Source: Eledone cirrhosa
Taxonomy: Eukaryota
Length of the DNA stretch: 64,000 bases
Reading direction: 5' to 3'
NCBI GenBank assembly: GCA_964016885.1
Contig: OZ024742.1
Coordinates: 362,142,001 to 362,206,000 of the forward strand
In this document: in pieces, positions 23,273 to 27,595 of the stretch
How positions within the stretch are numbered: the first letter of the stretch is position 1
Layout of the letters: the number at the start of each line of letters is the position of its first letter
The notes under the pieces: model-generated
Told to the model about the DNA's origin: nothing
Seen by the model: the letters and a program-made list of their open reading frames with translations, nothing else
Databases searched by the model: none
Translations under genes and position numbers: made by a program

Positions 23273-23396
23273 GAATATAGACATAGAATATTCGAAAATA
23301 TTCTGTATGTTTATAATAAACATTTTGAAGACCTAATCGCTATAGAATAGAATACGTCACGTATTACAATTCGATTCTCGATAAAAGCAAGGGAAG

Positions 23397-23437
23397 TAAT
23401 CTACGCGTTTCATTCTCGTTAGAAATCATCAGGACTA
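23397..23437 (-). ncRNA. Type I minimal hammerhead (family J), first of 7 minus-strand copies at 310-bp spacing
   Basis: TAGTC-CTGATGA-TTTCTAACGAGAAT-GAAA-CGCG-TA-GATTA. Confidence 0.9.
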
Positions 23438-25639
23438 CATATCCAGTGCTTTTATCGAGAATGACACAGCTAGAGACTTATAGAATACTTAGCTGTGTAC
23501 AGGAACTGGTTTGAAAGAGCGGTTGCCGGTCCGGCAGAAATTAGAAATTGGAATAAATGCTCTGAAATAGCGATATATATGTGAATATAGACATAGAATA
23601 TTCGAAAATATTCTGTATGTTTATAATAAACATTTTGAAGACCTAATCGCTATAGAATAGAATACGTCACGTATTACAATTAGATTCTCGATAAAAGCAA
23701 GGGAAGTAATCTACGCGTTTCATTCTCGTTAGAAATCATCAGGACTACATATCCAGTGCTTTTATCGAGAATGACACAGCTAGAGACTTATAGAATACTT
23801 AGCTGTGTACAGGAACTGGTTTGAAAGAGCGGTTGCCGGTCCGGCAGAAATTAGAAATTGGAATAAATGCTCTGAAATAGCGATATATATGTGAATATAG
23901 ACATAGAATATTCGAAAATATTCTGTATGTTTATAATAAACATTTTGAAGACCTAATCGCTATAGAATAGAATACGTCACGTATTACAATTAGATTCTCG
24001 ATAAAAGCAAGGGAAGTAATCTACGCGTTTCATTCTCGTTAGAAATCATCAGGACTACATATCCAGTGCTTTTATCGAGAATGACACAGCTAGAGACTTA
24101 TAGAATACTTAGCTGTGTACAGGAACTGGTTTGAAAGAGCGGTTGCCGGTCCGGCAGAAATTAGAAATTGGAATAAATGCTCTGAAATAGCGATATATAT
24201 GTGAATATAGACATAGAATATTCGAAAATATTCTGTATGTTTATAATAAACATTTTGAAGACCTAATCGCTATAGAATAGAATACGTCACGTATTACAAT
24301 TAGATTCTCGATAAAAGCAAGGGAAGTAATCTACGCGTTTCATTCTCGTTAGAAATCATCAGGACTACATATCCAGTGCTTTTATCGAGAATGACACAGC
24401 TAGAGACTTATAGAATACTTAGCTGTGTACAGGAACTGGTTTGAAAGAGCGGTTGCCGGTCCGGCAGAAATTAGAAATTGGAATAAATGCTCTGAAATAG
24501 CGATATATATGTGAATATAGACATAGAATATTCGAAAATATTCTGTATGTTTATAATAAACATTTTGAAGACCTAATCGCTATAGAATAGAATACGTCAC
24601 GTATTACAATTAGATTCTCGATAAAAGCAAGGGAAGTAATCTACGCGTTTCATTCTCGTTAGAAATCATCAGGACTACATATCCAGTGCTTTTATCGAGA
24701 ATGACACAGCTAGAGACTTATAGAATACTTAGCTGTGTACAGGAACTGGTTTGAAAGAGCGGTTGCCGGTCCGGCAGAAATTAGAAATTGGAATAAATGC
24801 TCTGAAATAGCGATATATATGTGAATATAGACATAGAATATTCGAAAATATTCTGTATGTTTATAATAAACATTTTGAAGACCTAATCGCTATAGAATAG
24901 AATACGTCACGTATTACAATTAGATTCTCGATAAAAGCAAGGGAAGTAATCTACGCGTTTCATTCTCGTTAGAAATCATCAGGACTACATATCCAGTGCT
25001 TTTATCGAGAATGACACAGCTAGAGACTTATAGAATACTTAGCTGTGTACAGGAACTGGTTTGAAAGAGCGGTTGCCGGTCCGGCAGAAATTAGAAATTG
25101 GAATAAATGCTCTGAAATAGCGATATATATGTGAATATAGACATAGAATATTCGAAAATATTCTGTATGTTTATAATAAACATTTTGAAGACCTAATCGC
25201 TATAGAATAGAATACGTCACGTATTACAATTAGATTCTCGATAAAAGCAAGGGAAGTAATCTACGCGTTTCATTCTCGTTAGAAATCATCAGGACTACAT
25301 ATCCAGTGCTTTTATCGAGAATGACACAGCTAGAGACTTATAGAATACTTAGAATGAAACGCGTAGATTACTTCCCTTGCTTTTATCGAGAATCTAATTG
25401 TAATACGTGACGTATTCTATTCTATAGCGATTAGGTCTTCAAAATGTTTATTATAAACATACAGAATATTTTCGAATATTCTATGTCTATATTCACATAT
25501 ATATCGCTATTTCAGAGCATTTATTCCAATTTCTAATTTCTGCCGGACCGGCAACCGCTCTTTCAAACCAGTTCCTGTACACAGCTAAGTATTCTATAAG
25601 TCTCTAGCTGTGTCATTCTCGATAAAAGCACTGGATATG

Positions 25640-25680
25640 TAGTCCTGATGATTTCTAACGAGAATGAAACGCGTAGATTA
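25640..25680 (+). ncRNA. Type I minimal hammerhead (family J), first of 6 complete plus-strand copies; predicted cleavage after GUA 25675
   Basis: TAGTC-CTGATGA-TTTCTAACGAGAAT-GAAA-CGCG-TA-GATTA; palindromic stem III ACGCGT. Confidence 0.9.
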
Positions 25681-27595
25681 CTTCCCTTGCTTTTATCGAG
25701 AATCTAATTGTAATACGTGACGTATTCTATTCTATAGCGATTAGGTCTTCAAAATGTTTATTATAAACATACAGAATATTTTCGAATATTCTATGTCTAT
25801 ATTCACATATATATCGCTATTTCAGAGCATTTATTCCAATTTCTAATTTCTGCCGGACCGGCAACCGCTCTTTCAAACCAGTTCCTGTACACAGCTAAGT
25901 ATTCTATAAGTCTCTAGCTGTGTCATTCTCGATAAAAGCACTGGATATGTAGTCCTGATGATTTCTAACGAGAATGAAACGCGTAGATTACTTCCCTTGC
26001 TTTTATCGAGAATCTAATTGTAATACGTGACGTATTCTATTCTATAGCGATTAGGTCTTCAAAATGTTTATTATAAACATACAGAATATTTTCGAATATT
26101 CTATGTCTATATTCACATATATATCGCTATTTCAGAGCATTTATTCCAATTTCTAATTTCTGCCGGACCGGCAACCGCTCTTTCAAACCAGTTCCTGTAC
26201 ACAGCTAAGTATTCTATAAGTCTCTAGCTGTGTCATTCTCGATAAAAGCACTGGATATGTAGTCCTGATGATTTCTAACGAGAATGAAACGCGTAGATTA
26301 CTTCCCTTGCTTTTATCGAGAATCTAATTGTAATACGTGACGTATTCTATTCTATAGCGATTAGGTCTTCAAAATGTTTATTATAAACATACAGAATATT
26401 TTCGAATATTCTATGTCTATATTCACATATATATCGCTATTTCAGAGCATTTATTCCAATTTCTAATTTCTGCCGGACCGGCAACCGCTCTTTCAAACCA
26501 GTTCCTGTACACAGCTAAGTATTCTATAAGTCTCTAGCTGTGTCATTCTCGATAAAAGCACTGGATATGTAGTCCTGATGATTTCTAACGAGAATGAAAC
26601 GCGTAGATTACTTCCCTTGCTTTTATCGAGAATCTAATTGTAATACGTGACGTATTCTATTCTATAGCGATTAGGTCTTCAAAATGTTTATTATAAACAT
26701 ACAGAATATTTTCGAATATTCTATGTCTATATTCACATATATATCGCTATTTCAGAGCATTTATTCCAATTTCTAATTTCTGCCGGACCGGCAACCGCTC
26801 TTTCAAACCAGTTCCTGTACACAGCTAAGTATTCTATAAGTCTCTAGCTGTGTCATTCTCGATAAAAGCACTGGATATGTAGTCCTGATGATTTCTAACG
26901 AGAATGAAACGCGTAGATTACTTCCCTTGCTTTTATCGAGAATCTAATTGTAATACGTGACGTATTCTATTCTATAGCGATTAGGTCTTCAAAATGTTTA
27001 TTATAAACATACAGAATATTTTCGAATATTCTATGTCTATATTCACATATATATCGCTATTTCAGAGCATTTATTCCAATTTCTAATTTCTGCCGGACCG
27101 GCAACCGCTCTTTCAAACCAGTTCCTGTACACAGCTAAGTATTCTATAAGTCTCTAGCTGTGTCATTCTCGATAAAAGCACTGGATATGTAGTCCTGATG
27201 ATTTCTAACGAGAATGAAACGCGTAGATTACTTCCCTTGCTTTTATCGAGAATCTAATTGTAATACGTGACGTATTCTATTCTATAGCGATTAGGTCTTC
27301 AAAATGTTTATTATAAACATACAGAATATTTTCGAATATTCTATGTCTATATTCACATATATATCGCTATTTCAGAGCATTTATTATATATATATATATA
27401 TTTATATATATATATATATATATATATATATATATATATATATATATATATATATATATATATATATATATATATATATATATATATATATATATATATA
27501 TATATATATATATATATATATATATATATATATATATATATATATATATATATATATATATATATATATATATATATATATATATATATATATAT

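Follow-up and report, generated by a model that had tools for sequence, protein, structure and literature searches.

A young hammerhead retrozyme family of Eledone cirrhosa whose insertions resemble those of Penelope-like elements

The non-long terminal repeat (non-LTR) retrozymes of metazoans, as described from coral, mussel and axolotl, are tandem units of 150-450 nt without an open reading frame (ORF) (PMC7229834), for which both the copying of tandem cDNA from a circular template and the help of Penelope-like elements (PLEs) have already been proposed (PMC7229834, PMC7761336). How animal hammerhead satellites and retrozymes enter DNA, and what purpose the hammerhead of PLEs serves, has been open since the newt satellite work, and in the accessible parts of these sources helpers and rolling circles are put forward without insertion evidence. 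The window analysed here, a 64,000-nt stretch of the Eledone cirrhosa genome (assembly GCA_964016885.1, contig OZ024742.1, positions 362,142,001 to 362,206,000, forward strand), contains a 310-nt hammerhead-bearing unit arranged as two divergent multimeric arms. On the features checked in its sequence the element is best regarded as a non-LTR retrozyme that is inserted like a PLE, and we put at roughly 0.65 the probability that it is a young, non-autonomous Penelope-type retrozyme whose whole chain of steps passes through a monomer circle.

As far as the consulted parts of PMC8557442, PMC3846280 and PMC11167929 describe them, PLEs with an endonuclease (EN+; Penelope/Poseidon, Neptune and Naiad) resemble the 310-nt family in carrying an inverted, 5'-truncated head-to-head copy with a tail of 30-40 nt at one end, in their microsatellite targets and in the priming of both strands at two internal sites. 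The tail has been traced in vitro to two internal start sites of the reverse transcriptase (RT), the spacing of which equals the tail length, and the protein, a predicted dimer, cuts AT-rich DNA on both strands and extends each of them (PMC11167929). The 310-nt family differs in having no ORF and in that each of its two arms is an extended, perfect multimer of a single small unit. Metazoan retrozymes share with it a type I hammerhead per unit, low GC and dispersed multimers, whereas the inverted two-arm layout, the tail and the start sites were not found in the accessible part of PMC7229834.

For Xenopus retrozymes the same conclusion, that they are non-autonomous PLE derivatives, has been reached (10.64898/2026.07.22.740005), although there it was argued from co-occurrence and from homology to pseudo-LTRs (pLTRs), tandems were ascribed to local amplification, and the accessible portion of the text holds no insertion anatomy. 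MRC1 and other non-autonomous Chlamys elements are likewise partners of PLEs and form multicopy head-to-tail insertions, but they belong to green algae and, in the part of PMC8557442 consulted, mostly lack a canonical hammerhead. The first-pass annotation of the window, made from its letters, had supposed that the family and its architecture might be undescribed; two-ended priming and the inverted layout are known for PLEs from the passages seen of PMC11167929 and PMC8557442, while divergent multimer arms with a tail were not found described for retrozymes in the accessible literature searched (including PMC8490949 and PMC13282606, with subscription papers, Repbase and supplements outside its scope). 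Each ingredient was known or proposed earlier, and it is genomic evidence linking the rolling circle to Penelope mobilisation that was not found in that literature.

Arms, tail and start sites

Tandem Repeats Finder placed two arrays of period 310 at 23263-25352 and 25351-27385, and exact mapping gave the following features, in which phase 1 of the unit is position 25676, the first base 3' of the predicted ribozyme cut.

23272..25352, minus strand: left arm, 2081 nt, 6.71 copies of the 310-nt unit
25351..27385, plus strand: right arm, 2035 nt, 6.56 copies of the unit, zero substitutions
25351..25352: inversion junction, a 2-nt AG overlap with the arms out of phase, where two cDNA 3' ends are joined
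27356..27385, plus strand: tail, the 30-nt excess of the right arm over the left at the 3' end, phases 131-160 (131-165 in most loci)
25805..25814, plus strand: a short TA run belonging to the unit itself (phases 130-139), located at the short start site; a block conserved in a 321-nt sister family
25615..25703, plus strand: one hammerhead domain, comprising stem I with a 16-bp extension, the core (25645-25651), stem II, GAAA and helix III

The left arm carries a single substitution, at 23372, and can be stretched to 23263, across the unit's own TA run, at the cost of one further mismatch. Its RNA would run from a 5' end at phase 220 to a 3' end at phase 130, the short, tail-less start site, and that of the right arm from phase 296 to phase 160, the tail-bearing site (family mode 165). 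Near-invariant units with one substitution, about 6.7 minus-strand followed by about 6.6 plus-strand copies out of phase over AG at 25351, and a lack of ORFs had all been claimed in the first-pass annotation and were borne out; no ORF of at least 150 aa lies within the arms, and there is no RT or GIY-YIG ORF in the element. CTGATGA...GAAA cores occur seven times on the minus strand (23432-25292) and six on the plus (25645-27195), which places a type I hammerhead motif in each unit (13 cores). With its tandem, ORF-less units, GC below 50% and no LTR, the element fits the description of a non-LTR retrozyme, and the type I topology and tandem units set it apart from plant LTR retrozymes, which have a type III hammerhead in LTRs.

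Copies were located by a pattern search of the 3.0-Gb genome. A 43-nt ribozyme pattern with the exact core of the window haplotype matched 4033 times, and exact ends numbered 971 for the long (phase-165) and 458 for the phase-139 form, with reversed controls at 0. We examined 93 arrays, namely the window, 10 regions found by the ribozyme pattern, and 40 phase-139 and 40 phase-165 ends drawn from the first 100 of each list; all extracted regions lay on the contigs labelled C1 and C2, and two of them contained two arrays. Three short, diverged sister-family matches (L055, L120) and rows L001-L030, which duplicated L031-L032, were dropped. The mapping of phase, arm length and flanks that the annotation had recommended identified the two-arm layout as the family's normal form: 80 of the 93 arrays are divergent (one with an extra internal inversion), 13 have a single arm and there are no convergent ones. 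Of the arrays picked up solely by the ribozyme core, 9/10 were divergent, and each end-selected set was chosen on one end, leaving the opposite end free.

Pattern recovery (26/49) leads to an estimate of about 1,800 loci; an alternative figure of 5,800 was set aside as it rests on 3/38. The exact core is present in 19-27% of units, which gives some 15,000-21,000 units genome-wide. Unfixed variants amount to 0.38 per kb and are mostly unique singletons; at this density the family must be very young. Arms average 4.5 units and range from fewer than 1 to more than 20, with at least 2 units in 113/148, so that the 6.5 turns each proposed for the window do not hold as a rule and its near-equal arms are a coincidence of that locus. 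Among very long arms (L054 and C1:97461499; L042) more than 22 units were seen, with probable full lengths, from end positions, of about 45 and 27 units.

The same two end positions recur throughout. All 75 complete two-arm loci, the other five of the 80 being incomplete within the extracted region and so outside this count, have one arm with its 3' end at phase 118-139 and the other at 155-172, in 43 and 32 loci for the two orientations. Outer ends (155) have modes at 130 (24), 139 (40) and 165 (65); as the mode at 139 is inflated by selection of the set and by the unit's own TA run, the short start site is probably at 130-132 and the offset 30-35 nt. TA runs hold 153 of the 155 outer ends, which extends to the family the annotation's remark, true of both window arms, that RNA 3' ends adjoin TA tracts.

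A head-to-head inverted, 5'-truncated copy, a 30-40 nt tail at one end and an AT-rich or microsatellite target, the marks of Penelope-like insertion, are all found here, and the fixed end offset of about 30 nt reads as the Penelope tail signature (PMC8557442, PMC3846280, in the parts consulted). A Penelope-type two-site insertion, taken alone, is in our view very probable. Family data, namely the tail offset in 75/75 loci and the TA targets, also support the annotation's suggestion of Penelope-type machinery acting in trans. Priming does not fall anywhere on the unit, nor at the cleavage position of the ribozyme, but at two fixed internal sites spaced by about 30 nt; of the single chromosomal break that the annotation imagined, the two-ended priming stands, whereas an endonuclease cut in (TA)n is likelier than a chance break.

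The start-site block is retained nearly unchanged in the sister retrozyme family of 321 nt (L120 2810-3620; L055 3715-4270; L121-L150), which is more diverged and has a core UUGAUAA that we take to be of the compensated U3:A8 type. The two units are identical in 213 of 327 columns, their stems covary and their ends lie at matching places.

The inversion could be put down to fold-back in long reads, to misassembly or to the first cDNA having been copied back on itself, and the junction at 25351 was not seen spanned among 14 listed of 600 public-run contig pieces, with 0 reads in a raw Hi-C run. Either arm may be the longer, though (38/74), and 12 of 72 loci, the window locus among them, have two arms of which neither would fit within the other. 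As a general cause, fold-back is thereby excluded, whether it occurred in the copying or in the reads; the copying variant was rejected on this ground. The fixed end offset, the differing flanks and an empty paralogous site within the window also speak against explanations of this kind, the probability of which we regard as negligible.

The hammerhead ribozyme

The domain is a type I hammerhead with a 6-bp stem I bearing a bulged 16-bp extension, CUGAUGA, a 4-bp stem II and GAAA, and the cut is predicted between 25675 and 25676, after GTA, where the annotation had correctly placed it. The complete type I hammerhead that it described is complete, but it is not canonical, as there is a U.U at the base of stem II and helix III measures 1-2 bp within a 6-nt palindrome (palindromic loop). 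Rfam, proposed as a check, gave no match at the gathering score across the window, nor any on the right arm with E values of as much as 10. Folding z-scores were -4.7 both for the hammerhead region (200 shuffles) and for the 310-nt unit (100 shuffles), and the minimum free energy fold returned stem I and its long extension but not the catalytic core fold. In the accessible part of PMC7229834, axolotl Amex1 has a 1-bp helix III with a palindromic tetraloop and Amex2 a U.U at the base of helix II, whereas the 310-nt unit has both; the axolotl retrozymes, for which both weakening features are described, cleave better as dimers, and by this analogy the hammerhead of the 310-nt unit would probably also cleave as dimers.

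Within the hammerhead domain, variants that break a pair or the core make up 1/13 of those fixed within a locus as opposed to 24/29 of the unfixed (p 6e-6), and 1/7 as opposed to 23/26 when A>G variants are left out (p 5e-4), while outside the domain fixed and unfixed variants are alike (p 0.76). The catalytic core is struck by four unfixed variants and by zero fixed ones, and a common fixed variant (13 loci) converts the basal U.U of stem II to A-U. This count leaves out two haplotype mosaics (L095 and L114), and end-gap artefacts were dropped. That fixed variants spare the ribozyme favours its being needed, with selection presumably acting across rounds of transposition. A>G changes are more frequent among fixed (8/28) than unfixed variants (9/100; p 0.012), and all the fixed ones lie in predicted A-U pairs; either wobble-tolerant selection or A-to-I RNA editing would give this enrichment.

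Template, joining and mechanism

Both arms carry the same haplotype in 63/66 loci, with 26 haplotypes present and a permutation mean of 8.8 (maximum 18 in 5000), as would follow from the single insertion event, with both target ends primed on one template, that the annotation envisaged and that the 80/93 divergent arrays also bear out. Substitutions fixed within loci number 28, of which 15 are private to one locus, in up to 25/25 units; a variant fixed throughout a single locus implies that it passed through one monomer and was then re-multiplied. Haplotype sharing and private fixation favour a monomer template, probably circular, and so uphold the derivation of the multimers from monomers. 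A possible objection is that the template was a cut linear monomer closed by stem I, the RT jumping end to end at each turn with no covalent circle: stem I and its extension pair the monomer ends, and 1-nt insertions at phase 3 are fixed in 7 loci. Yet in 838 crossings of the cut site there was no excess of errors at a ligation scar (1 of 79 singletons within 5 nt) or of truncations, and haplotype switches within arms are rare. Passages of the cut site without a scar would suit a ligated circle better than such jumping, which we hold to be very unlikely.

The arms appear to have met by end-joining. Inner junctions are blunt or overlapping in 53/79 loci and contain inserted bases in 26/79, and an overlap of at least 2 nt is found in 36 of the 53 as opposed to 18% expected; the AG of the window is unremarkable alone, and it is the family-wide pattern that shows, as far as sequence can, the joining of ends. 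The 5' ends of arms are scattered over the unit with some skew (Kolmogorov-Smirnov p 0.005), and no pile-up at the ribozyme cut was found (3/158, with 3.1 expected). In L1 twin priming, too, the RNA 3' ends face outward and the 5' ends are joined by microhomology; its second primer, however, sits at positions that vary within a linear, polyadenylated RNA, and we know of no fixed offset and no multimers there.

In the mechanism that we propose, the hammerheads within array transcripts would cut them, probably in dimer form, into monomers of 310 nt, and these would be ligated into circles, as other animal retrozymes suggest. A Penelope-like RT/GIY-YIG protein supplied in trans would bind the conserved block of the unit, cut both (TA)n strands and extend both target 3' ends on one template, from two internal starts some 30-35 nt apart at phases of about 130 and 165. 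Each cDNA would circle the template a variable number of turns before the two ends were joined through microhomology or fill-in. What can be read from the sequence is the layout of the arms, the pair of start sites, the TA target, a haplotype common to both arms, sweeps within single loci, the filtering of ribozyme-damaging variants and end-joining; cleavage, ligation, the covalent circle and the enzyme are steps that we infer.

A number of observations weigh against this mechanism and should be considered together. In L114 the two arms end, on the 3' side, in the same two units of a second haplotype, and in L052 they share one variant at a matching unit, so that both loci look copied in register from a multimer; L095 changes haplotype inside one arm. 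(L114 and L095 are arrays mixing two known haplotypes.) The lengths of the two arms are correlated (Spearman 0.43, p 1.6e-4, 74 loci), a result to be expected also from a shared template of finite length. The window ribozyme carries its two weakening features, 8/9 Xenopus dimers failed to cleave according to the part consulted of 10.64898/2026.07.22.740005, and cleavage by the ribozyme of PAc (anole) was dispensable in vitro, where unprocessed RNA was the main substrate (PMC11167929, in part), in contrast to the filtering by selection apparent in the 310-nt family. The pair table of the selection test was, moreover, our own, combining the predicted fold with a hand-set core.

Several of these points, namely the in-register sharing, the length correlation, the unprocessed substrate and the weak-looking ribozyme, would be accommodated if the same two-site priming took place on a long linear multimer RNA, a read-through or RNA-level rolling product, with the monomer occasional or upstream. 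Such sharing of unfixed variants is, however, limited to L052 and L114 over 215 template units covered by both arms, as compared with 15 private sweeps in 93 arrays; 52 unfixed variants in these units are in one arm only (4 from the L095 haplotype switch). About 25 shared variants would be expected if the sources were genomic multimers as variable as today's, and fewer from younger sources. Nor is there run-off at a common 5' end, a shared template start being found in 1/79 loci (L108). Read-through alone is incapable of fixing new variants in all units, although an RNA-replicated uniform multimer is unaffected by these points, and the same sequence pattern is expected from it as from a circle. 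We consider a multimer template possible, if on the whole unlikely.

Also to be set against the circular template are variants recurring at 6- and 7-unit periods in L069 and L089 and the mosaic L054 with its irregularly repeated variants, from which it follows that DNA-level duplication also acts. Multimeric circles were tried as the source of the 6-unit period in L069 and rejected, the third predicted repeat being absent. These loci are what would be expected if short Penelope-type insertions were later expanded in DNA by unequal crossover or slippage and homogenised as satellites, the route preferred in the accessible discussion of 10.64898/2026.07.22.740005. For the family at large we find it highly improbable, given 1 difference across 4.1 kb at the window locus, at least 2 units in most arms, unfixed variants that are mostly unique singletons, and filtering that is limited to the ribozyme.

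A helper sharing the tail of the 310-nt family, the last point on that side, was not found in the two PLE-like families examined. Protein-coding Penelope-like copies L171 and L172 (G000 C1) end in TA, with a 67-nt tail and divergent arms 3-4 kb long, and their family has 4065 copies of a related ribozyme core, but the 310-nt unit matches them only in 25/28 nt of that core and the tails differ. A 12-copy tandem, with a period of about 1.08 kb, lies at C1:83.68 Mb. The second, an abundant PLE-like family represented by a fragment at 18112-19272 of the window (also L163 and L165), with a 719-aa open frame and copies 84-95% identical, is not recognised by Pfam and in 20 loci had no tail in common with the 310-nt unit. 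PLE-like ORFs are barely recognised by Pfam and PDB; Atlas puts one with GIY-YIG/RT-bearing clusters at 0.94-0.95. In a search with variants of the conserved block, 30/45 loci were other retrozyme copies (the sister family, and one of the 310-nt family) and 0 an ORF-linked terminus.

The proposed mechanism brings a Penelope tail and inversion onto near-perfect multimers, with start sites placed within a few bases, and lends itself to direct tests that would combine a 310-nt RNA with a candidate enzyme and a TA target. It predicts the same insertion anatomy in coral, mussel and amphibian retrozymes, and, if true, an RT able to turn a small circle into kilobase concatemers on either side of a cut is a potential tool.

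Most of the stretch is contained in 20 public runs under 18 organism labels, none recorded as RNA. One of them, X5, resembles a host-type genome: loose TA ends, at phases 139 and 170, are present on its 574 contigs. Runs X1 and X2, under two other labels, each hold one 340-nt contig in which a variant-free 310-nt unit, identical to that of the window, is closed on itself; circular contigs can also arise from tandem DNA, the window unit was absent from raw Hi-C reads bearing X1's label, and transfer is a less likely explanation than contamination, diet or a collapsed assembly. A bolder interpretation would cite this single pure circle and the A>G enrichment for the 310-nt circle as a viroid-like replicon, edited or copied as RNA and archived in the genome when a Penelope protein dimer rolls on a single circle with its two active sites at once; we consider it distinctly unlikely.

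Target site and neighbouring elements

The flanks of the insertion and its uninterrupted counterpart are as follows.

21926..23272: left target flank, a complex (TA)/(CA) tract that closes with 19 nt of pure TA
27386..27596: right target flank, (TA)n, the first 16 nt finishing an interrupted TA run
29298..29335, with a second copy at 31139: uninterrupted target paralogue, 23-nt TA run

As the target tract is found uninterrupted twice more in the window, inside a 1.8-kb triplication, the array is one 4.1-kb insertion into a short TA run. The run around the insertion (19 + 16 nt) exceeds that of the paralogue (23 nt) by 12 nt, which may be a target duplication or TA slippage with equal effect.

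Several PLE-type families share the TA tracts of the window as target. A 613-bp inverted-arm element (27597-28209, 29478-30090 and 31293-31905) is a miniature of the same divergent-arm layout, with a hammerhead at its centre, scored by Rfam as HH9 at 36.6 bits (under the gathering threshold), and a tail some 70 nt long; it is triplicated at >99% identity along with its TA/CA tract, at periods of 1881 and 1815. More inverted pairs with hammerhead-like cores on opposite strands lie at about 4020-4800, 20617-20954 and 37526-39722, and additional hammerhead-like cores at 2940, 5346, 16272 and 35426. The window also holds three related non-LTR retrotransposon copies (6206-11101, 49499-55095 and 55967-61020; ORF1 and endonuclease/RT), one of which has an open frame of 1204 aa at 51481-55095.

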